Of a stretch of DNA of 64,000 bases, positions 7,567-51,459 are shown piece by piece (position 1 is the stretch's first letter; every line of letters starts with the position of its first letter). The notes beneath the pieces are model-generated. The model was given only the letters and a program-made list of their open reading frames with translations. It made no database searches and was not told where the DNA came from. Both the position numbers and the translations under genes were made by a program. The stretch covers positions 28,574 to 92,573 of the forward strand of contig CALMQM010000103.1 of NCBI GenBank assembly GCA_937871435.1, in the 5' to 3' direction. The DNA is from an uncultured Bacteroidota bacterium (lineage in GTDB: Bacteria; Bacteroidota; Bacteroidia; AKYH767-A; 2013-40CM-41-45).

Positions 7567-7581
7567 TATTTCCTCGGGAGA

Positions 7582-8427: not shown

Positions 8428-8448
8428 TTGATAACCTTTAGGTTGAAC

Positions 8449-10080: not shown

Positions 10081-10139
10081 AGTCGGTTTGTGTTTTGCTG
10101 GTTAAGTGTAATTGGTTAGTTGTTCTCTGGCTGCTTTGC

Positions 10140-10946
10140 TTAGCTACGCAGGGTCATTGCAGACAACATGTTGCCATAAACCGTGTTGAGCTGAGAAAGG
10201 TTCTTCGCCAATGTCGCCACTTCTTCGCGATACTTTCTTGTATCATCGAGAGAAGAATTCAGGTTAGACATAAGCTCGTTGATACCTTCATAGAAGCGGC
10301 TTGTTTGTTTGAGGTGTTCACTACTGTCCTGCAATTGCAGTTCATACACCGCATTCAAAGAAGCCAGATTCTTACCTGCAGTTACAACCTGGTCTTTATA
10401 CACTCGTACTTCTTCGGTGGAATTCGATAATGCTTCAACAGCTGAAGCAGCTTTTGTGTAAGAGCTACTGAGCTGGTCAACTGACTGAGCAGCTTTCGAT
10501 ACATTCTTCACATAATCATCTGTTGCAACAGAAGCGCTGCTCAGGTTAGCCATGGAAGCTGTATTCTCGCTGAGTGAACGAAGACCAGATCCCAAACTTT
10601 CGATAAGTTCCGGACCGATTTTCGCGTCAGACATCAGTCTGTCCAGTTGTTGTGCAACCGGATCTGTTTTTTTCTTCTTTTCCTTTTTGCCATGTGAATC
10701 ATCATCCATTCCGGCAAGTTCAGGATATACGAGGGACCAATCCACATCTTCGTGTGGTGGCTCAAATGCGGAGAAGAAGAAGATCACCGCCTCGGTTCCA
10801 AGACCTAATACCAGGAAGAATCCTGAAAAAGGCCAGTGTTGAATTTTAAAAAGGGCTCCGACGATTACAATGGATGCTCCCCATCCATATAATCTGGCCA
10901 TGAATTGTTTGAACTTCTTTCCTTGTGTTAATTCGCTAAGTCCCAT
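10140..10946 (-). CDS. gldL: gliding motility / T9SS protein GldL (PorL)
   Basis: 268 aa with two N-terminal transmembrane helices (WGASIVIVGALFKIQHW, GFFLVLGLGTEAVIFFFSAFEPP) and a coiled-coil cytoplasmic tail. Confidence 0.8.
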   Translation of the reverse strand: MGLSELTQGKKFKQFMARLYGWGASIVIVGALFKIQHWPFSGFFLVLGLGTEAVIFFFSAFEPPHEDVDWSLVYPELAGMDDDSHGKKEKKKKTDPVAQQLDRLMSDAKIGPELIESLGSGLRSLSENTASMANLSSASVATDDYVKNVSKAAQSVDQLSSSYTKAASAVEALSNSTEEVRVYKDQVVTAGKNLASLNAVYELQLQDSSEHLKQTSRFYEGINELMSNLNSSLDDTRKYREEVATLAKNLSQLNTVYGNMLSAMTLRS

Positions 10947-11063
10947 AGTTTCGAATTGATTTATTGGTTAGACGTTGATTAGTTTATCGAGGATGGTTAT
11001 TGGTCAATAGTCATACACTTAGGCAAAATGCCCGAACGGGAGGATCGGGTATTTACCGGAGAA

Positions 11064-12350
11064 TTAATAATCCGCCTTGTCGCGTCCGAGGAAACTCATC
11101 ACGCAACGGAAGCCGACATAACATTTTGCAGTATCCTGGTACTCAAAAGTACGGGAACCTGTTTGCAGATAATACATGACATCTTTCCATGAACCGCCAC
11201 GAATAACCTTCCTCTTCAAAGCAGGAGGATCGGAATCTTTCGCTTCGTATTCATAGTCCGTGCTGACATCATGTGTGAAACTATACGCAGATTCATCAAA
11301 AGCATTGCTTGTCCATTCTGACACGTTACCGGCCATACAATACAGACCGTAGTCATTTGGCCAGTAGGATGTAGCTTTTACAGTATATACACCGCCATCA
11401 TCCATGTAATTTCCGCGCATCGGTTTGAAGTTACCCAGGAAGCAACCACGGCTGTTCCGGATATACGGACCTCCCCAAGGATATGGAGACAAATCCAGTC
11501 CGCCACGAGCGGCATATTCCCATTCCGACTCTGTAGGCAAACGGAAATCCTGAACAAAAGAACCACCGTTGTCAGCAAGATAGCTGTTCAACAATTGAGT
11601 TCTCCAGATACAGAATGCACGTGCTTGTTTCCAGGAAACACCTACAACAGGATAATCATCATAGGACGGATGCCAGAAATACATTTGTGTTAAAGGCTCA
11701 TGATAAGAATACGTGTAATCATGGATCCAGGCTAAAGTGTCGGGATATACATTGATAACATCTTTCTTAATGAAGACAGACCTGTCACGCATTCCCTGCT
11801 CACGATTTTCTTTCGCTGCGGCACTGCGGAGGTCAATCCAGTAATATTCAAAATTCAGTTTACGGGTATCAATTTCTTTACGACGATAGAAACGCTCTGT
11901 TTCAGGAAGGAACAACTCGGCAAGAGTTTCTTCATTCTGATCATCATCCCACTTGATTTTCTCTCTCCAGTTGATTCGTTCACCATATTCACCTTCTTCG
12001 ATCAGGTGTTCACCACCTATTAGTCGGTGAGCCAGGGAGTCACGAACCCAATACACGAACTGGCGGTATTCGTTATTGGTGATTTCCGTATTGTCCATGT
12101 AAAATGCCGGAATCGTCACAGTTTTCGCTTGTGCAGTAATTGCATAAGGTACATCCTGATCGCTTGGTCCCATGTTATAAGAACCCGCAGGAATGTAAAC
12201 CATGCCGAACGGATCAGCCTGGTACCACTTTTCTCGATGGAGAACGCCGGTGAGTTCACCCTTGTTCCCGCTCCCGCAGCCCGCCAGGCTCAACAGGACA
12301 ATGGAATACAGAAAACCAAATTTCTTAATCCCTAAGGTCTTGAGATTCAT
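11064..12350 (-). CDS. gldK: gliding motility / T9SS lipoprotein GldK (PorK), FGE-sulfatase-like fold
   Basis: Lipobox LSLAGCGS, 428 aa, and the formylglycine-generating-enzyme-like C-terminal motif RGGSW...VGFRCV. Confidence 0.8.
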   Translation of the reverse strand: MNLKTLGIKKFGFLYSIVLLSLAGCGSGNKGELTGVLHREKWYQADPFGMVYIPAGSYNMGPSDQDVPYAITAQAKTVTIPAFYMDNTEITNNEYRQFVYWVRDSLAHRLIGGEHLIEEGEYGERINWREKIKWDDDQNEETLAELFLPETERFYRRKEIDTRKLNFEYYWIDLRSAAAKENREQGMRDRSVFIKKDVINVYPDTLAWIHDYTYSYHEPLTQMYFWHPSYDDYPVVGVSWKQARAFCIWRTQLLNSYLADNGGSFVQDFRLPTESEWEYAARGGLDLSPYPWGGPYIRNSRGCFLGNFKPMRGNYMDDGGVYTVKATSYWPNDYGLYCMAGNVSEWTSNAFDESAYSFTHDVSTDYEYEAKDSDPPALKRKVIRGGSWKDVMYYLQTGSRTFEYQDTAKCYVGFRCVMSFLGRDKADY

Positions 12351-12493
12351 TTTTTTATGAGTAATTGATGTTTCCTAAAACAATTAGCACTGCACTCAAT
12401 TAAAGCCAATTAGGCGTGACATCCTTTAACGGGTGACTACACCATTGGTTTCATCAAATCTAAGCAATCATTTCCCTCAGCACCGGGCAATAA

Positions 12494-13420
12494 TCACAGG
12501 AATCTTACATTCCTGTGGAACTGCCTTTTCACCACTTTATTGGTTTTAAAACAATATCCCAGCATCACCTCGTGCGATCCGCTGCTATATGTTTTAATAT
12601 CAGAAGTTGTTAAATCGTAAGAATATCCCAGTTTAAGATTAGGAATAATTTCTAATCCAGCCATGAGAACGATAGCATCTTGTAAACGGTATGATCCCCC
12701 AACCCAGAAACGGTTATTGATCCAAAGGTTCGCATTAAAATCCGCCTGCGTGGACACCGCGTCAGACTTCAGCATCACCATTGGTTTTAGTGTTAACGAA
12801 GAAGTGAGGTCAACATTGTATCCGGCCATCAGATAATAATGACGTGCCAGAGAGGTTGTGATATTGCTGTATTTAATATCGCCCTCTGTAAGGTGTTGAG
12901 CAGAAATACCGACATACAGTTGATCAGTATTGTAATATGCACCAAAACCTAAGTCGAAAGTACCGCCACTCACGGAATTAAGAGGAATGCTTTGGTCTCC
13001 TACATCGTTGTAAACGAATTTGGAACCATCCATTGATTTTTGGTGATAACCTAAATCTACCCCAACACCAATTCGTCCTGAACCAAGATCCGCACGGTAG
13101 GCATAAGCACCTCTGAGGTTAAGATTTTTTTCCACTCCTAAATTATCCGCTGCGTAAACCGAAAGCCCTACTGCCCCGTGTAACAGATCAAGAGGCATGT
13201 CCGCAGTGAATAACATGGTCTTTGGTTCACCACCAAAGCCTGTCCATTGGTTACGATAGAGCAAAGTAGCACAGATTGCATCATTTGAACCTGCTACTCC
13301 CGGGTTCACCGAAAGTTTGGTGAACATATTCTGACTAAACTGTGGATCCTGTTGTGCAAGAGTAGCCAGGCTACTCCCCAGAAAGGCAATAAAAAAGGCA
13401 ACCGTAAGTGTTTTACGCAT
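12494..13420 (-). CDS. PorP/SprF family T9SS outer-membrane protein
   Basis: Signature N-terminus AQQDPQFSQNMFTKLSVNPGVAGS, 308 aa, beta-barrel-like composition. It sits in the porP position upstream of gldK. Confidence 0.75.
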   Translation of the reverse strand: MRKTLTVAFFIAFLGSSLATLAQQDPQFSQNMFTKLSVNPGVAGSNDAICATLLYRNQWTGFGGEPKTMLFTADMPLDLLHGAVGLSVYAADNLGVEKNLNLRGAYAYRADLGSGRIGVGVDLGYHQKSMDGSKFVYNDVGDQSIPLNSVSGGTFDLGFGAYYNTDQLYVGISAQHLTEGDIKYSNITTSLARHYYLMAGYNVDLTSSLTLKPMVMLKSDAVSTQADFNANLWINNRFWVGGSYRLQDAIVLMAGLEIIPNLKLGYSYDLTTSDIKTYSSGSHEVMLGYCFKTNKVVKRQFHRNVRFL

Positions 13421-23014: not shown

Positions 23015-24511
23015 ATGGATCAACGTTTGTTCAAAGGATTAATGGACAGCAAACAGCTGGTTGGTAAAGAAGTACTTACTTCTTTGCAGGAACTCAGCAG
23101 GGAATATCCCTATTTTCAATCTGCCCACTTTCTTCTTGCAAAAGCATATCACGATCAGGAACATGTTCGTTACGACAAGCAATTGAAGATTGCCGCTTTG
23201 TATGCAGGTGACAGAAAAATTCTGTATGATCATTTGCATGATAAAACTTTTGTTTCCGGCAAATTCTTCAATCAAAATCAGGAAGCGGATTCCCCTTTTA
23301 TTCTGGATTCTGGTTCAACTATGATTGATGAAAATAAAAGAGAATCTGTTGCTGAAAGTGATGCCGAGGTTCATCCCTTCATCGAATCCCAGAATTACAA
23401 CACAGTGGATTTAGTCGAGAAGAGTCCTGAAGTTGAACAAATTGTTGCTAAAACTTCTGACACTTCAGCGGAAATTAAAAAGGAAATTACTTTTTCTACA
23501 GGATACACAGAAGCAATTGACATTGATTCCGAATCTTCATTTCCGGAACCTGAAAAGAAACTTGATCCAAGAGAAATAATAAAAAGAAGACTGGCCGAAA
23601 TACTAAGCCGATCACCAGAAGAAAATCCGGTTGATACCACTGCTTCTTTGGCACCTGAAATTCCAACAAGCGTTTCAATAGCGACTGAACAAAAAAATTC
23701 TGAATCTCCAATCAAACAGATACAGGAAGAAATTCCGGTTGCAGTTCATTCTATCGAGAAACAAAATGAGGAGACGGATCATGGTCTTGCTTTGGAATAT
23801 ACTGAAAAGAAAGAAGATCATTTTGTCAGAGAAGATCTCACGGCTGAGTTGAACAAACCACTTGACAATATCGAGAAGTCGGAATTGGAACATGCTCTCG
23901 AAGAAACCTTATTGCATTCATTGGAGCAGCTTCCGGTTATTGAAAAAGATAAATCCATCCCTACTCCTGTTGTTGCTGCCAATGTTGGTATGGATATTCA
24001 ACCGGAGAGTTCCAAGCGTTCATTCACTGATTGGCTGAAGCTGAAACGAACAACAAATTTTGGTTTTACGGAGGAAGTCCATGCTTATGATGGTCCTGAT
24101 TCAATCGAGAATTCAGAACCGACACAGTTGGAACAAATCCGGTCCGAACAATTTGCCGGAATCGAACAGAATATAGAATCCACTGATTCTAAAAACATTG
24201 AAAAAACAGCAGGCAACTCCGATTCAAGTGCCGCATTGATTGACAAATTCATCGCAACTGAGCCCAGGATTATCCCGTCTAAAGCAGAGTTTTTCTCTCC
24301 TGCCAGTCAGGCCAAAAAGAGTGTTGCAGAGCACGAAGATCTTGTTTCTGAAACACTTGCAAGAATCTATTTCCAACAAGGAAATCACCAAAAGGCGCGT
24401 TGGTGCTATGAAAAATTAAGCTTGCTTCATCCCGAAAAAAGCAGTTACTTTGCCGCCCTTGTCAGAGAAATCGACGAGCAACTCAATAATCTGAATAAAG
24501 AAGACCTGTAA
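23015..24511 (+). CDS. hypothetical protein with TPR-like termini and an acidic low-complexity centre
   Basis: 498 aa. TPR-like helices at both ends (AHFLLAKAYHDQEH..., ARIYFQQGNHQKARWCYEKL) flank a Glu/Ser-rich middle. The reading frame abuts secG. Confidence 0.45.
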   Translation: MDQRLFKGLMDSKQLVGKEVLTSLQELSREYPYFQSAHFLLAKAYHDQEHVRYDKQLKIAALYAGDRKILYDHLHDKTFVSGKFFNQNQEADSPFILDSGSTMIDENKRESVAESDAEVHPFIESQNYNTVDLVEKSPEVEQIVAKTSDTSAEIKKEITFSTGYTEAIDIDSESSFPEPEKKLDPREIIKRRLAEILSRSPEENPVDTTASLAPEIPTSVSIATEQKNSESPIKQIQEEIPVAVHSIEKQNEETDHGLALEYTEKKEDHFVREDLTAELNKPLDNIEKSELEHALEETLLHSLEQLPVIEKDKSIPTPVVAANVGMDIQPESSKRSFTDWLKLKRTTNFGFTEEVHAYDGPDSIENSEPTQLEQIRSEQFAGIEQNIESTDSKNIEKTAGNSDSSAALIDKFIATEPRIIPSKAEFFSPASQAKKSVAEHEDLVSETLARIYFQQGNHQKARWCYEKLSLLHPEKSSYFAALVREIDEQLNNLNKEDL

Positions 24512-39669: not shown

Positions 39670-39931
39670 CTACTTACAGGTGAATTTTTCCGGTAAGCAA
39701 AGTACAGAAAAATTGAGGGCATCAAATATCAGAGAGTAATTATTCCTGAGAAGACAAGGAATTAAAGTTGATATGGGAATGCCTGCAATCACTTTCATAA
39801 AGAGCTCTTTCAGTAAATTGGAATATTCCCTGAATTTTATATACAATCCTTATTTTCAATACAATATGCAGTACACCCAGGCGTTATTTTTTGTAAACTT
39901 TGTAGAGTGCTAAACATAAAATCATACAATC

Positions 39932-40369
39932 ATGAATCTGATCCACAAAATTGAAACCTGGGGTGATAACCACCAGGCAAAATGGTTTGCCATTCTCAGA
40001 TTATTCCTCGGACTGATTATTTTTTTCAAAGGCATTGTTTTCATTCAGAATACCGATGCAATAAACGCGATGATTGCCAACAGTGCGGTTTCTTTGTATG
40101 CTGTTTTTCTGGCACACTATGTAGCACTTGCTCATCTGATGGGAGGATTCCTGATTATTATCGGACTGCTGACGAGAGTGGCGGTATTGTTCCAGCTTCC
40201 TATCCTGATCGGTGCAATAATATTTGTGAATGCTCAAAAAGGATTTTTCAGTTTGCATTCAGAGCTGAGTTTATCCGTACTCGTATTGTGCCTGCTGTTG
40301 TTCTTTCTGATTTTTGGATCCGGAAAATATTCAGCGGATGAATTTATGCGCACACATGAACATACGTGA
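39932..40369 (+). CDS. DoxX-family membrane protein
   Basis: 145 aa with 4 transmembrane helices, typical of DoxX. Confidence 0.55.
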   Translation: MNLIHKIETWGDNHQAKWFAILRLFLGLIIFFKGIVFIQNTDAINAMIANSAVSLYAVFLAHYVALAHLMGGFLIIIGLLTRVAVLFQLPILIGAIIFVNAQKGFFSLHSELSLSVLVLCLLLFFLIFGSGKYSADEFMRTHEHT

Positions 40370-40504
40370 GATGATTGGGAGAAGCATTTTATCATGGATA
40401 TTGTCAATACAAGAAACTCCCGACAAATTGATTTGTCGGGAGTTTCTTTTTATTTAAAATGAGTTTCCTTACATCCAAATTCATCAAATACGTATAAAGT
40501 ACAA

Positions 40505-43075
40505 TTAATCTCTACACACCTTCAGCACTCCCAGTGATTCACCTTTCAAGTTAAACACAGACAAAAAATAAATTCCCGGCTGAATATTGGCTGTGTTCAA
40601 CTCTTTTGAATCCTTTTTCCCAACAACAAGGCGGCCGCATACATCTGTAAGTTGAATCAAGCCTATATTCTCCCCTTCAATGTGCAACTGATCTGTGAAT
40701 GGATTTGGGAAAGCTGAAAATAATTTTGTTTGTACAGATTGAATATTGTTCACCAATAAACTCAGCGAGGTATTTTCATAGCAGCCCGGGGAATACATAG
40801 TATATACAGTGATCTCCGCAGTGCCAATCAAATCCCAATGCACTTGCACAGAATCTGTACCCTGCCCGGAAAGAATTTCACCACCAACTATCTCCCAATC
40901 GTATGCCAGTACCCCTGTAGTATCAGTAGAGTAGATATAAGTCGAAAAAATATCCGGAGCTGTCTCACCTTGTATCACGGGAGAATTCGAACCGGGACAA
41001 TTGAATTTGACCAGAAATGCATCACCCATTCCGGCATACGTATTTTGATATCCGTTTTGCGCGATTCCAGCTTGACTCATTGTCCCGCCTGCTAAATAAA
41101 TATTACCTGATGGATCTGTAAAACATGACCAGCCACCATCTCCCAACTCCCCTCCAAAATACGTACTCCAGTTTCTTCTTCCATCCGGACTAAAAGATGC
41201 CAGAAATGCGTCGTGATCAGGCGGACCGGAAAACAAAGTATCCCGCAACCCGTGGTATCCAAATATGGAATCACTGTAGGTATCTCCACATACGATAACA
41301 TTTTGTTCCAAATCCACAGAGCAGGAATAAATCCCATCCCAATCAAACCCTCCATAATAGGTTCCCCACATGCGTTGACACGTAGAATCAAACTTGACTA
41401 AAAAACCATCTCTGTCAACGGAACCCAAGCCATGGAAACTATTCTGAAATCCATTATAAGCGATTTGATCTGTACTAGATGCTACGCCAGCTAAATAGAC
41501 ATTACATGTAGAATCAACAATACATCCAACACTGATATCATAAAAAGTTCCACCATAGTAAGTACTCCATATTCTTGAACCGGCAGAATCAAACTTAACT
41601 AACAATAAATCATGTGAGTTAATAATACTATCCCTGAATCCATGATAGGCAAGACCACTACTTCCTGCGTCCCCTGACAAGTAAACATTATTGTACCTGT
41701 CAGTTGTGATCCCGGAGACACCTTCAGTTTCAGAGCCTCCAAAAAAGGTAGCCCACAATCGACTTCCAGAACTATCAAATTTTACCAGATAAATATCTGT
41801 CCCACCGGAAAGAAATTCCTGAAATGAGTTTGGCGTGGTATACCCATTATTCCATTGAGTATAACTGGTCATGTAAATATTTCCTGATAGATCAGTCTTG
41901 CAAAAAACTGCATACGCCTCAGGTTGCCCATAATATGTTGCCCAAAGTCGCTGCCCGCTGTCGCTAAATTTTACTAATAAATTAACAAAATTGATTACGA
42001 ATATTCCAGGGTCCATTTGAAAGCCATTGTATGCAAGGCTGTCACTGGCTGTTAACATACACAAATAAATGTTTCCGGCCGGATCAGTCGAACCTGAAAT
42101 ACCTTGTTCAGTGGCCCTGCCTCCAAAATACGTTGTCCACAATCTGTTTCCGTTTGCATCAAATTTTGAAACATAAGCATCTTGTCCGCCACCCAAAGAA
42201 TCCTGAAACACCCCTGTTCCAAGTCCAACACTTTCTGTTGTTCCGAACAGAAACACATTACCATGTAAATCGGAATCGGCTTTTCCATATTCCGAGTCGG
42301 TTCCTCCGAAGTAAGTCGACCACACAACTCCGGGATCAATGATGATATCCTTATCATGAGCATACGCCTGCAATTTGAACGACACCACATTTTTCCTGAT
42401 CACAAATGAATTTCCTATTGCCGCTCCATTCTCCTGGTAACTGTAGGGCGCGGATTCTTCCAGTACACCAAGACGGGAATTGATGCGTAGCCGGCCATCC
42501 GGCAAAACCGTCAAACCGGATGAGTTTTTATATACAAATTGTATGTCATCTGGATTTCCTCCCGGATGCACAATGAAATCGTGATTGAATCCTTTTTCAT
42601 TGTAATAAATAACCCAGTCAATATGCGGGTAAACATTTGCGATTATTACTTTCTTAAATGATTTTACACCAAGAACACCATTCGGACATTGAGGTAAATA
42701 ATAATTATTCACTGCCTGTTCCGGCTCTTCCATGAAAATTTGAGGAGAAAGATTGCTATTCAACAGCCTGAATTCAATTTCATCACGTTGAAAAAAAACA
42801 GAACCTTTTTTATCCTTCTCATGTCCGATACCCGGATATACCCCTTTATTTTCTCCAAGTCTGCGTTTAAACTGATAAGTAATTCCATTATTAGTAATGA
42901 ACAAATTGATCCCCTTGGAATTACCGGTAAATAACACATCAGGCAAAGAGCGAAAATTATCATCACATATTTGTCCTTTGTTTTCGGTGAGAAAAAACGA
43001 AGAAGCAAAACCCGGAAAACTGATTGAGTGAACAATAAAAACAGTGAGACAAAATATATACTTTAGAGTTTTCAT
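40505..43075 (-). CDS. SBBP beta-propeller-repeat protein with a T9SS C-terminal sorting domain
   Basis: Signal peptide, then at least six repeats of the type GxRLW(A/T)TY(F/Y)GG, and a Por CTD at the end (PNPFTDQLHIEG...GIYFLSV). 856 aa. Confidence 0.7.
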   Translation of the reverse strand: MKTLKYIFCLTVFIVHSISFPGFASSFFLTENKGQICDDNFRSLPDVLFTGNSKGINLFITNNGITYQFKRRLGENKGVYPGIGHEKDKKGSVFFQRDEIEFRLLNSNLSPQIFMEEPEQAVNNYYLPQCPNGVLGVKSFKKVIIANVYPHIDWVIYYNEKGFNHDFIVHPGGNPDDIQFVYKNSSGLTVLPDGRLRINSRLGVLEESAPYSYQENGAAIGNSFVIRKNVVSFKLQAYAHDKDIIIDPGVVWSTYFGGTDSEYGKADSDLHGNVFLFGTTESVGLGTGVFQDSLGGGQDAYVSKFDANGNRLWTTYFGGRATEQGISGSTDPAGNIYLCMLTASDSLAYNGFQMDPGIFVINFVNLLVKFSDSGQRLWATYYGQPEAYAVFCKTDLSGNIYMTSYTQWNNGYTTPNSFQEFLSGGTDIYLVKFDSSGSRLWATFFGGSETEGVSGITTDRYNNVYLSGDAGSSGLAYHGFRDSIINSHDLLLVKFDSAGSRIWSTYYGGTFYDISVGCIVDSTCNVYLAGVASSTDQIAYNGFQNSFHGLGSVDRDGFLVKFDSTCQRMWGTYYGGFDWDGIYSCSVDLEQNVIVCGDTYSDSIFGYHGLRDTLFSGPPDHDAFLASFSPDGRRNWSTYFGGELGDGGWSCFTDPSGNIYLAGGTMSQAGIAQNGYQNTYAGMGDAFLVKFNCPGSNSPVIQGETAPDIFSTYIYSTDTTGVLAYDWEIVGGEILSGQGTDSVQVHWDLIGTAEITVYTMYSPGCYENTSLSLLVNNIQSVQTKLFSAFPNPFTDQLHIEGENIGLIQLTDVCGRLVVGKKDSKELNTANIQPGIYFLSVFNLKGESLGVLKVCRD

Positions 43076-43308
43076 GCGAAGAATAATAAACTGTATTTAC
43101 ATTTCATCTCAAATATAACAATTTTTTTAGAACTCTAAACCTTATTTTTTTCTTCATAATTCACTGATTTGTTAATACTCAATATTATTTTTCTCCAAAA
43201 AATCTTAGTCAAGAATAAATTGTATATTTTTATATTCAAATTTTATGAATATTTTATTTTAAATTCTTTTTTTATTTTAATTCAAATCATCCACAAAACT
43301 TCAACAAA

Positions 43309-46300
43309 ATGGTTACTTTTCAAAGACACCCCATTCTTTCTCAACTAAATTTCATTGTAGTTGTATTTCTTTTCATGTATAACATTTGCACGGCACAATA
43401 CCAAATTCCAAGCTGTGAAAACACTATGTTGATGGAAAACATGAATTATGATACACTTGTTCATAAACTTGATTCCTTATGGCAGCCTCTTCTGGAGTCA
43501 CCGGATTTTAATGAAGAAGAATATGAAGACAACTACATGGAATATAGCAGGTGGAAACATTTCTGGGAAAATCGTATAGGAGGACTAAACACACAAAACT
43601 CCGGATTTTATAACACCCTTTATTCCAGATTTATTAATACTGGAAATCATAGAACAAGTAACTGCAATAGCGGTCAATTGAATTCAAATTGGAAATCTTT
43701 AGGTCCGGGTGAGTATCCTGAGCAAAAATTAGGTTTTGTTCAAAGTATTGCAATGCATCCTACAAATTCACAAATACTTTATGCTGGTTCTGAAAATGGT
43801 GGCTTATTTAAAAGTGTGAACGGAGGACAAACATGGGAAAATAAAACGAATGGATTAGAAGTTCCTGGATTAGGAATAATGGATATTCAAATAGATCCAA
43901 ATAATTCCAATAATATGGTCGCAAGTACTGGCGGCAAACATGCGTATAGCGTAGGGATAATCCACAGTACAGATGGAGGATCTAGCTGGGACATTTCCAA
44001 TTTTAATCTTCAATCCTCTGTCCAACAAACTCAATTCCGACAAGTACGATACGACCCAGCAATACCCAATACAATATGGGCAATTGAAAATAAGGGTAAA
44101 TTGTATAAGTCTGCAGATGGCGGACAGAGTTTTTCGGAACTTTCTTCTCCACAATATGGCCCACAAGTTCCAATAAATCCATATTGGGCAAAGAGATTTC
44201 TTGGCGATATTGAAATTATTCCAACAAATACAAACCACTCAAAAGTAATAGTAGTTTCTGCCAATGATGATAATGCCGGAAATCAAGGTGGATTTATTCA
44301 AATGACATTGGACGAGGGTGCCACTCCCTGGACTTATATAACTCCTGAACCTTATATAGAAAGAATTAATCTGGATTTTGCTAAGGTTTCAGGAAATGCC
44401 CCAGATAATTTCAAAGCATTGTACGTAGTGAACAGACCTACGATAAAAATTACTGAAATAGCTCATGATCTTGACAATGCAACTTCATTGCCTAGTTATA
44501 TAGACAGAACTGGCCAATATGACTATGTGGAGTTAACAAATTTCAAACCATTAAACGACCTAACGAATTTAAAAAATTACATTCTACAACGAATACTTCC
44601 AAACAACTCAGGTTCGCCCATAATTGAAGAATATAAATTTGCTGATGTTGATGTCTATTTTAATGGCGGAGATGTTGCTGTTATTTGTCTTCAATCTGTA
44701 AATACATCATCAAGCCAACCTTTATTTTTTTCAACACAAATTTCTGCCAGTCAAATACCTTTCAGTAACTTGAGTAACAGTGACAAGGCATTGTATCTTT
44801 TATTCGATAATTCTACTGGCAGATTGATTGACCTGGTATCTGTTGCAGGATTTGATCTAAACGATTTGCAAAATCTGCCGGTTAAAAATTCAATCAATCA
44901 GAGTTGTCTGAATTACCCATCTTGGGATTTTCCGAATAGTCTCTATTTTTCCAGTAGTTCAGAATCTTTGCAGTTAGTTGATAACGATAACAACTCATCA
45001 ACGCATTGGTCAAATTCAACTCCTATCAGTATAGCCACCTTGAACAATTCAATTAACCCACCTTTTGAAATTATTTACCCAATCAGACATGTGCTTGCTC
45101 AGTATGACATCATCAATGGCATTTGGACAAACCTCCAAACCAATAATTATCCAAGTAATTCTGGTGCAGAAGGTACTTCGCATTTTAAATGGAGAATATC
45201 TAAAAACTCATTGGAATATAAGCAATGTGATCTAGATGCCACTTTGATGGCAGTGGGCGGAACAAGAGGGCAATATTCAAATGATAATGGTAGTACTCTC
45301 TTTGAAAGTGGCTACAACACTTCTGAGAGACATGCAGATATACGAGACATTGAACAAATTCCAAATTCCACAGGTTGGTTGATTGCCACCGACGGTGGAG
45401 TAACCAAAGTCAACTACTCAGGTGGATCTTTCACTGAAACAAATTTGAATGGCAAAGGATTGGCACTCTCAGATTTACTCGGAATTGACAGTCCACCTAC
45501 AGAGCCGGATAAATTTATGTTCGGAGCATTTCACAATGGGTCTTGGATATATGACAATGGATCCTGGTATAATTCTATTTGCGGAGATGGATTAGAATAT
45601 AAATATGGGAAAAACATATCTGGACTCCATACAACATATCCTGAGTTATGGCTTGGCCAATGTAATGCGAGACTGCCTTATACGGACAATACTTTCTCCG
45701 CAATGAATATGCCCTATCCAAATAATGCAGATATTAGAGACGATAATCAAGTGCGGATAAAGTTCATACACAATATTAACGGAAATGATATTCCCTACTT
45801 AGCTTGTAAGGTTTTATTTAAAAATCCTGTCATTGATAACGCCAACACTATTGATATATTAAATGACAACATACCTTTTTCAGACCCAAATATTCATTTT
45901 GATAAACTAGGCTTAATCACAGCATTTGATGTAACGGCAGGTAATAACGATACAATTATTTTTGCATATGGTGGAACTACATCGCAACTTCAATATAAAA
46001 TATGGATTAGTTATGACAATGCAGCGAATTGGAATGACATAACTTCAAATTTTCCAGTTTATACCAATCCTCCTTCAGTTTTCAATGACCGGAGTGTTTC
46101 GGATATAGTGATTTCCCCGAATGACCCTAATAAAATTTGGGTATCATTTAGTGGTTTCAATAAAGATGAAAAAAAGATTTTTTATAGTAGCGACGCTGGA
46201 CTTACCTTCAACGATATCTCTGGTCAGAATCTGCCTGAAAGTCCAATCAATTGTCTCGAATATCAGGAAGATTCAAATGATGGAATTTATGCTGGCACAG

Positions 46301-49110
46301 ATGAAGGTGTCTACTACATCGATAACACCCTTACAGACTGGGTCTGTTTCAACAACGGAATGCCCTGCAATATGGTAACAGATCTCGATATTAATTCATG
46401 TGGAGGAATTCTCAGAGCAGCAACTTATGGATCAGGAATATGGGAAAGCCCAATGGTACCTAATCTTGCCAGGGAAATTACCCAAACTGAGATTTGGGAC
46501 ACTGATAAAATTATTGAGCACAATGTAATCGTCAAACAAGGCGGACATTTGATAATTAAAAATCATGCGGATATAGCTTTCGGAGGAGGTGTATCAATAA
46601 CGGTTGAACAAAACGGCTCTTTGGCTATTTCAGATGGTGCAATATTACATTCAGAATGTAATTATATGTGGAGTGGAATTGTATCCAGAAGCTTCAGCGA
46701 AGTTGACGTTAAGAATTCAATCATTAGGGATGCCAATCATGCAATTGAATTATCCAACTCAAGCTATGCATATATTAAGAACACAAACTTTGAAAATAAT
46801 ACAGTTAGTATTTATGGAAATGATAATCCAGGTTCGGTAGCTATTGGTTACATTTTAGGAAATACTTTTACTTGTACTTCTAATCTGAAAAAAAATATCA
46901 TCGATCCATCCGGATTAAACCTTACTCATCCATCTGCAGGAATTGAATTAAATGGGCTCCAAATTCCATTTGATCCCTATGGAGCACCATGTGTTTTTTC
47001 AAACCTGAATAATGGGATAGTACTTTCAGAAACTGATATGCAGATAGTGAGCTGTAGCTTTGATCAAATAAAGGACTATGAAATAACATCCCATTCTCTA
47101 AATGGTTATGCAATTCAAGCAAATGGCTCAGGGGGAGGTTATAAATTATCTGTTTCTGGTGGAGTACAGCCTGTTTCAATTGATCACTCGGACAATGGAA
47201 TTCGCACAAACCATATGGGTGTAGAAATAGAATCCATTTCTATAGACAACACAGATTTCGGTATTTGGGTTCAGGGAAATGAATATGGCCTTTCCTCATT
47301 GATTGCTCATTCCAATCTGAATTGTAATATCCATGGAATTGAACTGTGGATGAATATCGGTTCTACCAGCCAGAAAATTATAGGAAATATTATCAATGTT
47401 GGAAGTCCTGGATTCAACCCTTCCGGGAATGCTATTCGAATTGACGATTCAAATATTATTAATAGTGGAATATTCGTAAATGGAAATATCATTGAAGCCA
47501 ATAATTGCAAGGGCGGTATAACATTAATAAATGCAAGCAAAGCAAAAGTGTTGGAGAATAATGTTACACTTCATGATGCCATTAACAATTATTACGGCAT
47601 AAGTCTATATAATAATGAATCCAGTATTGTCGAATGCAATACAGTGGTAGGTTCATCAAGCAATTCAGCGTCAAAGCAAAGAGGCTATATTTTTAATAAA
47701 AGCCCCAATTCCCTGGTTTCTTGTAACATCGAAAGTAACACTCATTTTGGATTTGAATTTGATGATATATGCGACAATTCTATTTTCCAGGAAAATATCA
47801 TGAGCACCAATTGGTGTGGTTTATATTTAAATTCAAACGCTGTCATTGGAGTGCAACTCAGTATGGGAAATTTATGGGACTGCGCTTTACCATTTGGAAG
47901 TGGGTTTGAAGCGATAAATCAGGATTTGCCAAATTTAAATTCTTCAGAAATTTATGTTAATCAGGTGATGGACTGTTCAAACAGTTCAACAAATTTTGCA
48001 TTGTCACCTTCAAATGTTCAGCCTAGTTTTAACTGGTTCTCCAATTCCACCAATCCACCTGCCAATGAATGTGCATTAGGAATTGTTTGTGCCACTCAAG
48101 ATCATCCTCCTGGTGAAGGTACCAGTGATTTTGACGAAGCAGTTGCACAAAATCTTGTATCCTTTTTTGACTACAATGACGAAACAAAGACAGCCGCAAG
48201 ACTATTGTTGTACAGTAAACTCGACAACAACACAGATCTTCTTTCCTCTACGATCTACCATCAATTCTATAATACTTTTTCTAATTCATCAGTTGCTTCA
48301 GTAAAAATAGTCCACGATAAGATGATTGACTCATACAAAGCAGATTCACTTTCATTGGTGGAATTAGGTACATATGACAGTTTAAATTCGGCTTATACAA
48401 ATATCATTGACTCTTTAAATTACCTCATTGTTAGTGACACTTCGGGTACTCAAACTCAATTTTTAAATAATCAGCTTTCTTATTTTCTTGACTTAAAAAC
48501 TGTATTGAAGAATGAAGGTCACATACTCTTTTCAAGTCTTGATTCAATATCAAAAATTCACTTGATAGATGCATTGAGTATTAACTCAAGCATATCTTCT
48601 GGTGACTTGATCATTAATAATTTAAAAAATATTAATGACATCATTGATAATTTTAGATTAAGATCTGATCAAACATTTACAGAGTCTGAAAAGATCATTA
48701 TTGATGAAATTGCCTCCTTGTGTCCATTCGAAGGCGGAGAGGCTGTTTACAAAGCCCGATCTCTTCAGTTTTACATTGATCCTTCCATATCATACGACGA
48801 TATCCAATTATGCCAACAATATGGCTATTTAAGAAAAATCAAACCAGAGGAAGAAGCAGCATTCAAAACGATTTTATCTCCAAACCCATCTGATGGAGAA
48901 GTTACTTTTTATCTTGATCCGGACATTGATTTGAAATACACCATTTACATATATGATTCAAGTTCCCGATTAATTTTTACCTCTCCTGAAAATATCCAAG
49001 GATCGGTATCAACCATTTCAAGCAGTAATTTGGAGGATGGAATTTATATGTATAAAATAAATTTCTCCAATCAAAAATCCTTGCAGGGTAAATTTATTAT
49101 CATGCATTGA
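43309..49110 (+). CDS. giant (1933-aa) multidomain T9SS cargo protein: BNR/Asp-box beta-propeller, lamin-tail domain, parallel beta-helix repeats and a Por CTD
   Basis: Asp-box motifs (SVNGGQTWENK, STDGGSSWD, SADGGQSF, SSDAGLTF), an LTD-like YDYVELTNF at about 44520, many N/G/S-rich beta-helix repeats, and the C-terminus LSPNPSDGEVTFYLD...GIYMYKINF. Confidence 0.7.
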   Translation: MVTFQRHPILSQLNFIVVVFLFMYNICTAQYQIPSCENTMLMENMNYDTLVHKLDSLWQPLLESPDFNEEEYEDNYMEYSRWKHFWENRIGGLNTQNSGFYNTLYSRFINTGNHRTSNCNSGQLNSNWKSLGPGEYPEQKLGFVQSIAMHPTNSQILYAGSENGGLFKSVNGGQTWENKTNGLEVPGLGIMDIQIDPNNSNNMVASTGGKHAYSVGIIHSTDGGSSWDISNFNLQSSVQQTQFRQVRYDPAIPNTIWAIENKGKLYKSADGGQSFSELSSPQYGPQVPINPYWAKRFLGDIEIIPTNTNHSKVIVVSANDDNAGNQGGFIQMTLDEGATPWTYITPEPYIERINLDFAKVSGNAPDNFKALYVVNRPTIKITEIAHDLDNATSLPSYIDRTGQYDYVELTNFKPLNDLTNLKNYILQRILPNNSGSPIIEEYKFADVDVYFNGGDVAVICLQSVNTSSSQPLFFSTQISASQIPFSNLSNSDKALYLLFDNSTGRLIDLVSVAGFDLNDLQNLPVKNSINQSCLNYPSWDFPNSLYFSSSSESLQLVDNDNNSSTHWSNSTPISIATLNNSINPPFEIIYPIRHVLAQYDIINGIWTNLQTNNYPSNSGAEGTSHFKWRISKNSLEYKQCDLDATLMAVGGTRGQYSNDNGSTLFESGYNTSERHADIRDIEQIPNSTGWLIATDGGVTKVNYSGGSFTETNLNGKGLALSDLLGIDSPPTEPDKFMFGAFHNGSWIYDNGSWYNSICGDGLEYKYGKNISGLHTTYPELWLGQCNARLPYTDNTFSAMNMPYPNNADIRDDNQVRIKFIHNINGNDIPYLACKVLFKNPVIDNANTIDILNDNIPFSDPNIHFDKLGLITAFDVTAGNNDTIIFAYGGTTSQLQYKIWISYDNAANWNDITSNFPVYTNPPSVFNDRSVSDIVISPNDPNKIWVSFSGFNKDEKKIFYSSDAGLTFNDISGQNLPESPINCLEYQEDSNDGIYAGTDEGVYYIDNTLTDWVCFNNGMPCNMVTDLDINSCGGILRAATYGSGIWESPMVPNLAREITQTEIWDTDKIIEHNVIVKQGGHLIIKNHADIAFGGGVSITVEQNGSLAISDGAILHSECNYMWSGIVSRSFSEVDVKNSIIRDANHAIELSNSSYAYIKNTNFENNTVSIYGNDNPGSVAIGYILGNTFTCTSNLKKNIIDPSGLNLTHPSAGIELNGLQIPFDPYGAPCVFSNLNNGIVLSETDMQIVSCSFDQIKDYEITSHSLNGYAIQANGSGGGYKLSVSGGVQPVSIDHSDNGIRTNHMGVEIESISIDNTDFGIWVQGNEYGLSSLIAHSNLNCNIHGIELWMNIGSTSQKIIGNIINVGSPGFNPSGNAIRIDDSNIINSGIFVNGNIIEANNCKGGITLINASKAKVLENNVTLHDAINNYYGISLYNNESSIVECNTVVGSSSNSASKQRGYIFNKSPNSLVSCNIESNTHFGFEFDDICDNSIFQENIMSTNWCGLYLNSNAVIGVQLSMGNLWDCALPFGSGFEAINQDLPNLNSSEIYVNQVMDCSNSSTNFALSPSNVQPSFNWFSNSTNPPANECALGIVCATQDHPPGEGTSDFDEAVAQNLVSFFDYNDETKTAARLLLYSKLDNNTDLLSSTIYHQFYNTFSNSSVASVKIVHDKMIDSYKADSLSLVELGTYDSLNSAYTNIIDSLNYLIVSDTSGTQTQFLNNQLSYFLDLKTVLKNEGHILFSSLDSISKIHLIDALSINSSISSGDLIINNLKNINDIIDNFRLRSDQTFTESEKIIIDEIASLCPFEGGEAVYKARSLQFYIDPSISYDDIQLCQQYGYLRKIKPEEEAAFKTILSPNPSDGEVTFYLDPDIDLKYTIYIYDSSSRLIFTSPENIQGSVSTISSSNLEDGIYMYKINFSNQKSLQGKFIIMH

Positions 49111-49119
49111 ATAAATTCC

Positions 49120-50622
49120 ATGATGGCCAGACTAAACATATCTATATTACAACTTTTAATTCCATTCACACTGGTATTTGGCCAAGGAGAAGCAAATAAA
49201 TGGCTTGCAGGATACCACGTACCAGCAGGGCCCCAACCGCCGTGGGGAGTTAGTATGATAGATTTTAATCCTGGATTTCCTGACACTTCTATCACCACTA
49301 TACCTATGAGTTTCCGTTTCACATGTGCCATTGCAAATGACAGTGCTGGAAACTTACTATTTTATACCAATGGTGTCTACATTGCAGATGCGAGCCACGA
49401 TACCATGCTTAATGGATCAGGTATTAATCCAGGTCCATATGTGAATACATTTCGAGATGCTGGTTTAAGAATTCCTCAAGGTGATATCATCATCAGAGAT
49501 CCTGGAAATTTAAACGAGTATTACCTTTTTCATGAAACAGCAACTTATGATTCCAACATAGGATCACAAGTTGAAGAATTGTACTATTCGAAAATTGATA
49601 TGAGTCTAAATGGTGGTTTAGGAGCTGTTACTTCTAAAAACAATGTCTTACTTCATGATACCCTTCTGAATGGTGCAATTACCGCCGTCAGACATGCAAA
49701 CGGGAGAGACTGGTGGCTTCAATTCCATAGATGGAATTCGTCTACCTTTGTAAGGTATTTAATTACATCCGGAGGAATTCAAGGGCCTTTTTATCAGACC
49801 ATCGGTAGTCATTCTCAATATGGATCTACCGGAGGTGCAATTTTTTCACCAGATGGTTCAAAATTCGTACATAGCAATATAGAAATGGAAGTTGATTTGT
49901 TTGACTTTGACAGGTGTACCGGCGAACTTTCCAACCTGGTGCATTTTCATGCTCCGCAACCTACCTATGCAATCCATGCGGAATTCTCCCCAAACAATCG
50001 TTTCTTATATGTCAATACGGATAGCACAATTTATCAGTATGACTTGCACGCAAACAATATTTTTCTCTCTCGTCTTACAGTTGCCGAATTCGATACTTTT
50101 GCAGACCCGGGACCACCATTTTGGTGCTTTTTCGATATTCCAAAACTCGGTCCGGATAATAAAATTTATTACGCACCGGGAAATACCTGTGCCTCATTTC
50201 ACGTAATCAACGATCCTGACAGCCTGGGAAGGGCATGTAATGTTACTCTTCATTCTCTTGCATTACCCAGTTATTGTGCCTGGACAATTCCGAATTTTTA
50301 TAATTTTTGGTTAGGCAAAATTCCGGGTAGTGATTGTGATAGTTTAATAGACAATCTACTCGATTTACCTGTAGAAAATTTTAGTTTCAAAATTTTTCCA
50401 AATCCTTCTGATGGAATTGTAGATTTTGAGTTTCATTCACATTTAGAACAAAATTTCACCTTAAACATTTTCAATTCGGAAGGTAAAAACTTCTTTCAAC
50501 AGATTATTCAAAAGAATGAATCTACCTATCGAATGCCGGCGAATGTTTTAAAACCCGGGTTTTACATCGCTGAACTAAGATCAAACCGAAGTGCATACCG
50601 ACAGAAACTTATTGTAGAGTAA
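49120..50622 (+). CDS. T9SS C-terminal-domain cargo protein (beta-propeller-like), probably co-transcribed with the giant gene
   Basis: The start lies 9 nt after the upstream stop. Signal peptide, then a CTD (FKIFPNPSDGIVDFEF...GFYIAELRS). Confidence 0.6.
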   Translation: MMARLNISILQLLIPFTLVFGQGEANKWLAGYHVPAGPQPPWGVSMIDFNPGFPDTSITTIPMSFRFTCAIANDSAGNLLFYTNGVYIADASHDTMLNGSGINPGPYVNTFRDAGLRIPQGDIIIRDPGNLNEYYLFHETATYDSNIGSQVEELYYSKIDMSLNGGLGAVTSKNNVLLHDTLLNGAITAVRHANGRDWWLQFHRWNSSTFVRYLITSGGIQGPFYQTIGSHSQYGSTGGAIFSPDGSKFVHSNIEMEVDLFDFDRCTGELSNLVHFHAPQPTYAIHAEFSPNNRFLYVNTDSTIYQYDLHANNIFLSRLTVAEFDTFADPGPPFWCFFDIPKLGPDNKIYYAPGNTCASFHVINDPDSLGRACNVTLHSLALPSYCAWTIPNFYNFWLGKIPGSDCDSLIDNLLDLPVENFSFKIFPNPSDGIVDFEFHSHLEQNFTLNIFNSEGKNFFQQIIQKNESTYRMPANVLKPGFYIAELRSNRSAYRQKLIVE

Positions 50623-50632
50623 TTTTTAACCA

Positions 50633-50660
50633 CAAAAAAAAGGGAACCATTCAGGTTCCC
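50633..50660 (-). terminator. rho-independent terminator of the cold-shock gene
   Basis: On the minus strand, the hairpin GGGAACC-tgaat-GGTTCCC is followed by T8. Confidence 0.7.
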
Positions 50661-50682
50661 TTGGTAGTCGGCAGATATTTTT

Positions 50683-50877
50683 TTACTGGATCTTTCTCAC
50701 ATTTACAGCATTCTGGCCTTTTTTGCCATCAATAACTTCAAATTCTACGGCATCATTCTCCCGTATTTTGTCGACAAGGCCGCTGTGGTGAACGAACACT
50801 TCTGCTGCGTTGTCATCTGCTACTATGAATCCGTATCCTTTGGACTCATTAAAGAATTTTACTTTACCAGTTTTCAT
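50683..50877 (-). CDS. cold-shock protein (CspA family)
   Basis: 64 aa containing MKTGKVKFFNESKGYGFI and the RNP motifs. Confidence 0.9.
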   Translation of the reverse strand: MKTGKVKFFNESKGYGFIVADDNAAEVFVHHSGLVDKIRENDAVEFEVIDGKKGQNAVNVRKIQ

Positions 50878-50967
50878 TGGGTAATGGTTTTCATCACAAG
50901 GGTCAGCTGCAACCCGCGGACAACTGCCGTTGCGAGTAATTAATTGTCAAATGCGGGTTTAGAATTT

Positions 50968-50997
50968 CAAAGGTAGCAATCTATTCCAAACACGCAA
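50968..50997 (-). promoter_or_regulatory. putative csp promoter (TTG-N19-TACCTTTG) giving a 5' UTR of about 90 nt
   Basis: The reverse complement of 50968-50975 is TACCTTTG. A long leader is typical of cold-shock genes. Confidence 0.35.
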
Positions 50998-51009
50998 ATC
51001 TCATCAAAA

Positions 51010-51459
51010 TTAATTCCCTGCCAGAAGCTCTTTTACAAGTCCGGAAACGATTTTATTATCGGCTTTCCCTGCAAAAAATTTAGATGCAGCACCCATCACT
51101 TTACCCATATCCTGCGGGGATGAAGCTCCAGCTTCCGCGATAATCCGTTTCAATTCAGACCGGATTTCAGCTTCATCCATTTGCTTTGGGAGAAATTTTT
51201 CTATAACACTTATTTCCTCCAGTTCTGGTTTGGCCAGATCGGGACGATTTTGTTGCTGATAAATCTCCACAGATTCTTTTCTTTGCTTCACCAGTTTCTG
51301 AAGCATTTTAATTTCATCTTCGGCAGACATGGTAGCTGCACCGGAAGTTTTTGCCATCAGAATCGATTGTTTGATCGCTCTTAAGCCACGCACACTTGCT
51401 TCATCTTTCGCAAGCATAGCGGTTTTCAATTCGGCGTTAATTCTCTCTTCAAAGTTCAT
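51010..51459 (-). CDS. GatB/YqeY domain protein
   Basis: 149 aa with a YqeY-like sequence. It sits in the conserved position downstream of ftsZ. Confidence 0.6.
   Translation of the reverse strand: MNFEERINAELKTAMLAKDEASVRGLRAIKQSILMAKTSGAATMSAEDEIKMLQKLVKQRKESVEIYQQQNRPDLAKPELEEISVIEKFLPKQMDEAEIRSELKRIIAEAGASSPQDMGKVMGAASKFFAGKADNKIVSGLVKELLAGN

Follow-up and report, generated by a model that had tools for sequence, protein, structure and literature searches.

SprB and RemA of Flavobacterium are very large secreted surface proteins with repetitive adhesin domains and a dedicated downstream gene, and SprB-type adhesins of Flavobacterium johnsoniae carry type B C-terminal domains (CTDs) and have cognate PorP/SprF-like outer-membrane partners, as in the sprB-sprF arrangement. 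Their route out of the cell, secretion through the type IX system (T9SS), is the one by which Bacteroidota deliver surface adhesins and enzymes, and most environmental T9SS cargo has no known function. Cargo is attached to the surface by PorU, and beta-helix domains are common in it (PMC11969387). Here we analyze a window of 64,000 nucleotides from an uncultured Bacteroidota bacterium (contig CALMQM010000103.1, positions 28,574 to 92,573 of the forward strand; positions below are those of the window), in which a 10.26-kb island carries three T9SS cargo genes, encoding an SBBP-propeller protein of 856 amino acids (aa), a protein of 1933 aa that we call the giant, and a protein of 500 aa that we call p500. 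Our preferred account, held with moderate confidence, is that the giant and p500 are a T9SS-displayed, non-catalytic adhesin or glycan-binding pair on an acquired island, co-transcribed and acting together.

The locus resembles that of SprB and RemA in its very large, repetitive protein with a dedicated downstream gene, and SprB repeats occur in some members of the family defined by the C-terminal module of the giant; unlike SprB with its type B CTD and PorP/SprF-like partner, both members of the pair carry type A CTDs, and p500 itself is cargo of a soluble type. With the GH74 xyloglucanases and OXG-RCBH (2cn2, 6mgj, 6p2m and 1sqj) the giant shares tandem seven-bladed Asp-box propellers, but identity is ~10-13%, and the giant adds a propeller insert, an N-terminal helical bundle, a beta-helix module and a T9SS CTD. 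PorZ (5m11), a T9SS-exported surface protein that binds the anionic lipopolysaccharide A-LPS, likewise has two propellers and a CTD-like C-terminal domain (Foldseek E 5e-11, template modeling (TM) score by target 0.41), but it is a conserved machinery component, part of the T9SS attachment complex, of ~750-780 aa (the 5m11 chain has 748 residues), whereas the giant is accessory, island-borne and 2.5 times larger, has a beta-helix/helical module, and matches PorZ in fold more weakly than it matches GH74. From beta-helix surface proteins such as phage tailspike receptor-binding domains, Vag8, EtpA, pertactin and PfbA, the giant differs in its low identity (9-16%, with no family-level sequence membership), in its added Cys linker and helical domain, and in export by the T9SS rather than by the type V secretion system or on a phage.

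The cargo genes, their export signals and the secretion operon lie as follows:

40370-50633, no strand: the island, 10.26 kb, lineage-specific, from the doxX 3' end to the terminator of a small cold-shock gene (csp)
40505-43075, minus strand: 856-aa SBBP gene, with DUF7948 at aa 30-248, an SBBP propeller at aa ~250-700, a weak PKD-like domain and a type A CTD at aa 789-856
43309-49110, plus strand: giant gene, 1933 aa (NCBI MFN8144007.1)
43309-43395, plus strand: putative Sec signal peptide of the giant, aa 1-29 (...NICTA↓QYQ), read from the translation, with Gln as the first mature residue
48877-49107, plus strand: type A CTD of the giant, aa 1857-1933
49120-50622, plus strand: p500, 500 aa, with a putative signal peptide at aa 1-21 (VFG↓QG), a ~400-aa body and a CTD at aa 425-499
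7582-13420, minus strand: T9SS core operon porP/sprF-gldK-gldL-gldM-gldN, all above NCBIfam equivalog cut-offs

The three open reading frames (ORFs) have exactly the coordinates given in the initial annotation of this DNA, which had also reported a 9-nt gap between the giant stop and the p500 start and an AT-rich upstream region of ~230 bp; both were borne out, the latter as a visibly AT-rich spacer of 233 bp. The CTDs that it placed on all three proteins score above curated cut-offs in the 856-aa protein, the giant and p500, respectively, with both PF18962 (32.9, 33.3 and 36.7 bits; cut-off 27) and TIGR04183 (28.5, 31.7 and 33.2 bits; cut-off 23). The NCBIfam type B CTD model reached 14.2 bits against a cut-off of 35, and the CTDs of the giant and p500 are type A. 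AlphaFold 2 (AF2) modeled the giant CTD as a seven-stranded sandwich, whose Foldseek matches are CTD chains in SprA-PorV translocon complexes (8gl8_D, 8gl6_D RemA CTD) and the mirolase CTD. The view of the region as a T9SS cargo island also held, as the genes sit on a discrete 10.26-kb insertion and the same window carries, ~27 kb away, a T9SS core operon (PorP family 266.8, GldK 596.5, GldL 241.7, GldM 348.3 and GldN 246.9 bits), so the secretion machinery is present; PorU, PorV and SprA lie outside this window.

The start of the giant differs between callers, with 1933 aa at NCBI and, in Logan, a start at M40 that gives 1894 aa and loses the signal peptide. We prefer the long start, because the M40 start removes the apparent signal peptide. 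The residue after the predicted cleavage site is Gln in the giant, p500 and the three complete p500 homologs, which fits the N-terminal pyroglutamate habit of Bacteroidota secreted proteins.

The module-p500 cassette

The giant and p500 form a conserved cassette, and the SBBP gene stands outside it. The domain layout of the giant was taken from homology maps and two AF2 models, the first covering aa 29-1130 (40-sequence alignment, predicted TM score (pTM) 0.74) and the second aa 1060-1933 (6 sequences, pTM 0.53). Between the propeller head and the CTD these place three elements, given here with the predicted local distance difference test score (pLDDT):

46471-47838, plus strand: right-handed parallel beta-helix, giant aa ~1055-1510, first segment of the conserved module at the C-terminus; pLDDT 70-92
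47839-48123, plus strand: Cys/Trp linker, giant aa 1511-1605, with Q1516, G1520, N1521, W1523, W1576 and F1577 conserved among ~150 representatives; pLDDT <30
48124-48813, plus strand: alpha-helical domain, giant aa ~1606-1835, modeled as helices by AF2; pLDDT 40-70; no Pfam match at E<=10

With giant aa 1100-1860 (761 aa) as the query, an exhaustive HMMER search for the module gave 1,531 cluster representatives at E<=1e-3, of which 767 pass E<=1e-10 and 110 pass E<=1e-30. With few exceptions the match spans the query from end to end, in proteins of 840-2860 aa, and stops ~70-90 aa short of the C-terminus. A word-indexed search had given only four relatives, and the rarity of the module that this implied was overturned by the HMMER representatives; the word index greatly understates this Asn/Ser/Gly-rich family and even omitted an identical protein (P0001). 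The linker and the helical domain have no Pfam or PDB sequence match, and no Pfam or NCBIfam model covers either of them or the module as a whole. Among 27 sampled members, 22 carry Por_Secre_tail, the heads include SprB repeats (six members), DUF11 (four) and PKD or Ig domains, and Beta_helix or NosD was detected in some, down to E 1.9e-17. The architecture had been described as not belonging to a standard annotated family, which stands insofar as no database gives it a functional name, but it is not unique; propeller-plus-module proteins were also found elsewhere (P0144, P0158, P0188, L110 and L111).

The beta-helix itself, predicted at about 500 aa, is by structure a right-handed beta-helix of ~450 aa, although Pfam Beta_helix stays at 20.5-23.7 bits on the giant, under its cut-off of 25.9. 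Conserved positions across ~150 module members are mostly structural (G, N, I, F, W and paired Cys), and among charged residues only D1141, R1817 and D1831 are conserved, D1141 alone of them inside the beta-helix. The top family motif, IAxQCPxxGGxAVYxARxLY...YDDxxxC, spans aa 1801-1835, right before the CTD. A pectate-lyase catalytic site had been named as something to check for, but conserved residues of a lyase or hydrolase are missing from the beta-helix: neither a Ca-binding Asp cluster plus Arg/Lys base nor an Asp triad appears in its conserved columns in ~150 representatives, and no polysaccharide lyase (PL), glycoside hydrolase (GH) or other enzyme family model matched in Pfam or NCBIfam. 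Because the conserved residues are mostly structural, a structural or docking role is favored over a lyase or hydrolase site.

The body of p500 matches no Pfam family and contains the motifs GNLLFYTNG, RHANGRDWW, FSPDG, DFDRCTGELSN, QYD and LGPDNKIYY. Its earlier description as propeller-like has one weak profile match behind it, to the seven-bladed lactonase-type propeller 4qrj (E 0.0095). In all four module homologs recovered with a module-only search (P0121-P0124), the next gene on the same strand is a p500 homolog. These downstream genes encode 500, 500 and 505 aa and a 320-aa contig-end fragment, the three complete ones carry a CTD, and in the family alignment they are 27-34% identical to p500. 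Invariant across the p500 homologs are GNLxFYxNG, RHANGRDWW, FSPDG, DFDRxTGxLSN, QYD and LGPDxxIY.

Starting from the module, a p500 homolog was found downstream in 5/5 look-ups; starting from p500, the module lay directly upstream on the same strand in 46 of 88 p500-family ORFs, drawn from a metagenome scan with the p500 family (E<=1e-30, at least 1 kb of upstream sequence). Among the p500 ORFs that lack a module, at least six come directly after another ORF of the p500 family, and others stand alone. Genes around the cassettes differ by locus (rho/acyl-CoA dehydrogenase, panD/panC, ompA and, here, doxX/csp). The linkage tracks the module and not the propeller head, and in the giant the match to the module HMM covers positions 1-760.

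Tandem p500 pairs were seen at the metagenome loci L095, L098, L132, L143, L161 and L165; at the last four of these a module gene precedes the first copy, and none was seen upstream in L095 and L098. A solitary p500 homolog (37% identity) lies between yqeY and ROK at 7565-9049 of a related metagenome-assembled genome, L006 (JANOBV010000338), oppositely oriented and with no module gene. Because about half of the p500 ORFs lack an upstream module and that of L006 is solitary, p500 can function without the module.

A family of ~1680-aa propeller proteins (P0005 and others) was considered as sharing the module and its partner and was rejected, as the module HMM matches only P0007, weakly; the 493-aa genes downstream of this family were likewise dismissed as p500 kin and share only the CTD with p500. 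At loci L170 (6001-13399) and L171 (6001-13423) the ~1680-aa genes (P0009 and P0005, respectively) are followed 4 nt later by the 493-aa gene and then by a ~297-aa CTD gene, both unrelated to p500, which makes a second, different conserved three-gene cargo array. The L170 neighborhood also holds Peptidase_S74/CTD, CHU_C and reverse-transcriptase genes.

The GH74-like propeller head and its insert

The N-terminal part of the giant is built as follows:

43414-43662, plus strand: three-helix bundle, giant aa 36-118, common to the wider propeller family; AF2 pLDDT 56-76
43690-44352, plus strand: propeller part 1, giant aa 128-348, with E162 and Asp-boxes at aa 169, 220 and 268; pLDDT 80-95
44353-45207, plus strand: propeller insert, giant aa 349-633, ~285 aa, a possible divergent lamin-tail-like domain; pLDDT 30-40
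45208-46452, plus strand: propeller part 2, giant aa 634-1048, with H742; pLDDT 80-93

BLAST matches of the ~1680-aa family to the giant begin at aa ~47-79. The Asp-box (BNR) propeller of the initial annotation is real, with Sortilin-Vps10/BNR at 50.3 bits (cut-off 33) and five Asp-box-like motifs, and T9SS cargo with Sortilin/BNR-type propellers is represented by hundreds of matches. It is not of the sialidase type, however, but a GH74-type tandem seven-bladed double propeller. The top 24 Foldseek matches are GH74 xyloglucanases (E 5e-18 to 1e-14; TM-score by target 0.24-0.65, mostly 0.51-0.65), and a profile of the propeller family reached GH74 chains at E 1.7e-48 to 2.5e-29, compared with ~1e-13 for Sortilin, 6e-11 for Ycf48 and ~1e-7 for sialidases. 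A sialidase catalytic site had also been named as something to check for, but the RIP motif occurs nowhere in the giant, and a GH33 sialidase, six-bladed with (F/Y)RIP, is ruled out both by this absence and by the fold.

Catalytic site 1 of GH74 was fixed by two PDB pairs, 2cn2 (YARADIGG) with 2cn3 (YARAAIGG) and 6mgj (YARTDIGG) with its D60A mutant 6mgl (YARTAIGG). Where GH74 has YAR[TA]D[IV]GG, the giant has YAGSENGG, which places E162 at the site; across 40 aligned family members this column holds P in 14, N in 10, A in 7, E in one (the giant) and D never. Site 2, the Asp of GD[Q]G (D465 of OXG-RCBH), was fixed by comparing 1sqj (64.2 bits) with the D465N mutant 2ebs (61.9 bits) over chain residues 400-532. 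In 1sqj only the GDQG aspartate fits the coordinates, and 2cn2 also fits if the second catalytic residue of Xgh74A is D480, as we take it to be. At this site the family has QDNG, with D in 34 of the 40, and the giant has FHNG, which gives H742; P0002 and P0158 also have His.

Since both catalytic aspartates are replaced (E162, H742), the giant is not a canonical GH74 hydrolase, and the wider propeller family cannot use the GH74 mechanism because it has P, N or A at site 1. Judged from these sequence positions, the head is probably a GH74-derived, non-catalytic binding module; that E162 and H742 form a non-canonical Glu/His catalytic pair is less probable. The propeller insert and the D-to-H change at site 2 co-occur in the giant, P0002 and P0158, while Glu at site 1 is seen only in the giant.

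Domain-interrupted Asp-box propellers are a recognized class (types 2 and 4), exemplified by the lectin insert of the Vibrio cholerae sialidase (PMC2716378), and the giant shares with them a discrete domain inserted in its propeller. Compared with most family members it has ~200-220 extra residues within aa 349-633, and a comparable insert is found only in P0002 (278 aa) and P0158 (265 aa). Its motifs ITEIAHD, YDYVELTN, GRLIDLVS and NDNNSSTHWS recur across the three inserts in the same order, as ITE[IV]xHD, D[YF][IV]E[LI]TN, G..[LI][LI]D[LV]V and [ND]DNNS..xW. The initial annotation had read a lamin-tail-like segment here from YDYVELTNF, which is present at aa ~385-393. The giant insert gave no Pfam match to the lamin-tail domain LTD (PF00932), or to any other family at E<=10, but LTD is the top Pfam match of the two orthologous inserts (P0002, E 2.8e-3, 18.5 bits; P0158, E 4.5e-4, 21 bits), below the 34.3-bit gathering cut-off in both and over profile positions 12-74 in both. 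Alignment of the insert profiles with the lamin A tail (a query sequence identical to 6ghd_B and 1ivt_A) by hhalign was not significant (E 0.096 and 0.42), with the motifs in the expected register. A word-indexed search with the insert alone found no homologs, and a two-sequence insert profile found no match in the PDB. At ~285 aa the insert is also much longer than the ~110 aa of LTD. The insert may be a lamin-tail-like domain, which we regard as a reasonable lead and not as established.

The island, its third gene and its genomic setting

The island was delimited against the closest species representative, L004 (Bacteroidetes metagenome-assembled genome (MAG) JADKKE010000004; FtsA 98% and FtsZ 89% identical), which has the gene order ftsA-ftsZ-yqeY-doxX-ROK-GH20. 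By blastn, window 39849-40369 aligns with L004 13234-12705 and window 50634-51441 with L004 12622-11812, and the 10,264 bp at 40370-50633 here stand against ~82 bp at the same site in L004. The three island genes are likewise missing from more distant relatives (FtsZ 66-75% identical), and because neither L004 nor these relatives have them, a lineage-specific insertion is the parsimonious explanation. The arrangement is not an assembly artifact, since an identical gene order is found on contigs of three independent sequencing runs and on a 363-kb NCBI MAG contig. On the latter the proteins (MFN8144006-08) are all named only 'T9SS type A sorting domain-containing protein', and the named relatives all come from MAGs and all have generic names; in the collections searched, no homolog from a cultured organism turned up.

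GC content is 0.368 in the island and 0.422 outside. At third codon positions (GC3) it is 0.289 in the giant gene, 0.301 in the p500 gene and 0.349 in the SBBP gene, compared with 0.32-0.47 in flanking genes, and the value of the SBBP gene is nearer to that of the neighbors than are those of the giant and p500. The low GC3 of the giant points to a donor of lower GC. Horizontal acquisition of the 10.26-kb region is our best reading, at the same moderate confidence as the whole account of which it is part. Two convergent genes flank the island site with their 3' ends. The junctions, inspected for target-site duplications, showed no direct repeats, no integrase- or transposase-type domain matched in the three genes (Pfam, NCBIfam), and a tblastn search against plasmids gave only weak propeller-level matches, so a plasmid origin is not supported. 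In L006, the p500 homolog occupies the same intergenic slot, so T9SS cargo genes seem to land in this slot repeatedly.

Within and beside the island we noted the following elements:

40411-40448, plus strand: hairpin with a 17-bp stem in the gap where doxX and the SBBP gene converge, within the left margin of the island
43076-43308, no strand: divergent intergenic region of 233 bp, with a -7 box, TATATTTG, at 43117-43110
50640-50662, minus strand: terminator-like hairpin just beyond the right edge of the island, conserved in L004, which ends the cold-shock gene
50683-50877, minus strand: 64-aa cold-shock gene between yqeY and the island, starting MKTGKVKFFNESKGYGFI...

The hairpin at 40411-40448 is probably a bidirectional terminator. 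An Rfam His_leader match at 40354-40451 on the plus strand (33.6 bits, gathering score 49) lies on this terminator hairpin and was dismissed as almost certainly spurious, and the Rfam scan of the island gave nothing beyond this sub-threshold match. The cold-shock ORF escapes ORF lists with a 100-aa minimum, and its stretch is 82.7% identical to L004.

The third cargo gene, called an SBBP-propeller protein in the initial annotation, indeed scores above cut-offs for both DUF7948 (PF25778, 167.9 bits, cut-off 27) and SBBP (PF06739, 28.1 bits, cut-off 20.5), and its propeller matches CylK in the PDB at E 1.9e-25. It thereby resembles SBBP proteins with DUF7948, such as CylK and the Leptospira LipL53 family, but it reaches only 107 bits against the LipL53 equivalog cut-off of 400, and it differs further in its T9SS CTD and weak PKD-like domain. 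Sharing of the alkylation chemistry of CylK is not supported. No SBBP/DUF7948 gene was found beside the other module/p500 cassettes examined, and we infer that this protein is a separate cargo, carried in with the cassette or landed next to it. In the spacer that divides it from the giant, a motif search found one Bacteroidota-type -7 box, the one listed above, which is oriented to the SBBP gene, and a sigma-70 promoter scan did not rise above its shuffled controls; separate regulation, as had been suggested from the AT-rich spacer, is plausible.

On its left side the island is bordered by genes for GH92, GH2, CutC, glycosylasparaginase, GH20 and a ROK kinase, with doxX coming next; the stretch at 29137-39669 on the minus strand is an apparent N-glycan degradation locus in which GH2 is beta-mannosidase-like. 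This cluster is kept beside yqeY/ftsZ in many relatives and is therefore ancestral and outside the island. To the right lie the 64-aa cold-shock gene, yqeY and the division and cell wall (dcw) genes ftsZ, ftsA, murC and murG. Elsewhere in the window, a 498-aa ORF at 23015-24511 on the plus strand had no Pfam or NCBIfam match at E<=1e-5.

Proposed role and alternatives

In our preferred account of a non-catalytic pair, the three cargo proteins would cross the inner membrane via Sec, their CTDs would pass them to the T9SS translocon (the genes of its GldKLMN core lie 27 kb from the island), and the PorU sortase would cleave the CTD and leave the proteins surface-attached or released. The giant and p500 would then be one functional unit, a non-catalytic surface complex. 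The last ~830 aa of the giant (beta-helix, Cys linker, helical domain and CTD) would be a conserved base for interchangeable N-terminal heads, with the beta-helix and helical domain serving as stalk and docking platform for p500, and the propeller cleft and its insert would bind a glycan or another polymer ligand. More tentatively, the module and p500 could be an undescribed and widespread two-component T9SS surface-display system of Bacteroidota, in which the base docks a propeller-like partner and shows interchangeable heads, among them a catalytically dead GH74 double propeller with an LTD-like insert; the variable part would lie at the N-terminus because the T9SS signal is C-terminal, mirroring polymorphic surface/toxin systems.

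Several observations weigh against the non-catalytic pair. About 48% of the 88 p500-family ORFs lack an upstream module, and L006 has its p500 homolog alone. The helical domain (pLDDT 40-70) and the insert (pLDDT 30-40, few strands) were modeled at low confidence, the signal peptides of all three proteins were read by eye (hydrophobic N-termini with A/G↓Q or A↓S sites), and the GC3 offset may partly stem from an Asn/Ser/Ile-rich composition. E162 is acidic, the single such residue among the aligned family at catalytic position 1. The nearest beta-helix folds include non-enzymatic adhesins (Vag8, EtpA, PfbA and pertactin) but also phage depolymerases, alginate epimerases (AlgE4/AlgG), PL6 lyases and GH110/GH87.

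The last two points also speak for the alternative that survives best, although we consider it unlikely, namely that the giant is a secreted polysaccharide-degrading enzyme, either an undescribed beta-helix lyase, hydrolase or epimerase or a GH74-like propeller acting through Glu162/His742, with the heads targeting the substrate and p500 as an accessory for binding or processing. Kinship with GH74 is strong (E 1.7e-48; Foldseek E 5e-18), depolymerases, AlgE4/AlgG, PL6, GH110 and GH87 are among the top beta-helix neighbors, a conserved module with variable heads resembles carbohydrate-active enzymes, in which the catalytic domain is conserved and the appended modules vary, and the island adjoins the N-glycan-degrading cluster (GH92, GH2, GH20 and glycosylasparaginase). 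Against this, both GH74 catalytic aspartates are replaced and site 1 is P, N or A in the wider family, the beta-helix holds a single conserved charged residue (D1141) and no acidic/basic cluster, no CAZy-type or other enzyme family model matched, and the heads of the module family are adhesin-type repeats with no recognizable carbohydrate-binding modules. The adjacency to the glycan cluster is incidental, because the island inserted next to a cluster that is ancestral. The architecture had originally been likened to surface adhesins or polysaccharide-processing enzymes, and of these two the enzyme is the weaker option, given that conserved catalytic residues were not found.

We think it improbable that the giant is a gliding or attachment adhesin of the SprB/RemA type, moved by the gliding machinery, with p500 as an accessory for secretion or loading. 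SprB-repeat heads occur in 6/27 sampled module proteins, gldKLMN and a porP/sprF-family gene are in the window, and a large repetitive protein with a dedicated downstream gene recalls sprB-sprF, but both CTDs of the pair are type A, p500 is CTD-bearing cargo and not a PorP/SprF beta-barrel, and gldB, gldD, gldF, gldG, gldH and gldJ did not turn up, with no search aimed at them. Least probable is that the giant and p500 are functionally unconnected and the island holds three unrelated cargo genes brought together by the general clustering of T9SS cargo, as generic clustering, the ~1680-aa family with its 493-aa and ~297-aa non-p500 CTD genes, the unrelated SBBP cargo here and the ~48% of p500 ORFs without a module could suggest, since the adjacency is family-specific and recurs in unrelated genomic contexts, order, strand and short gaps are kept across pairs only 24-34% identical, and the look-ups gave 5/5 from the module and 46/88 from p500.

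In kind, this is an ordinary T9SS cargo locus, as Sortilin/BNR-propeller and beta-helix T9SS cargo is numerous, and our results, all of them computational, do not overturn current understanding. What is new is the unannotated module family, the coupling of module and p500, the GH74-like heads without the catalytic dyad and the precise limits of the island. The catalytic dyad is gone from GH74-like double propellers of T9SS cargo, so the labels xyloglucanase and glycosyl hydrolase should be avoided for them, and they probably serve as binding modules. The island is also a clean example of cargo gained by insertion at a variable site beside the dcw cluster. The ~750-aa C-terminal module, with more than 1,500 protein clusters, merits definition as a family, and its genetic coupling to p500 suggests a two-protein complex at the bacterial surface.

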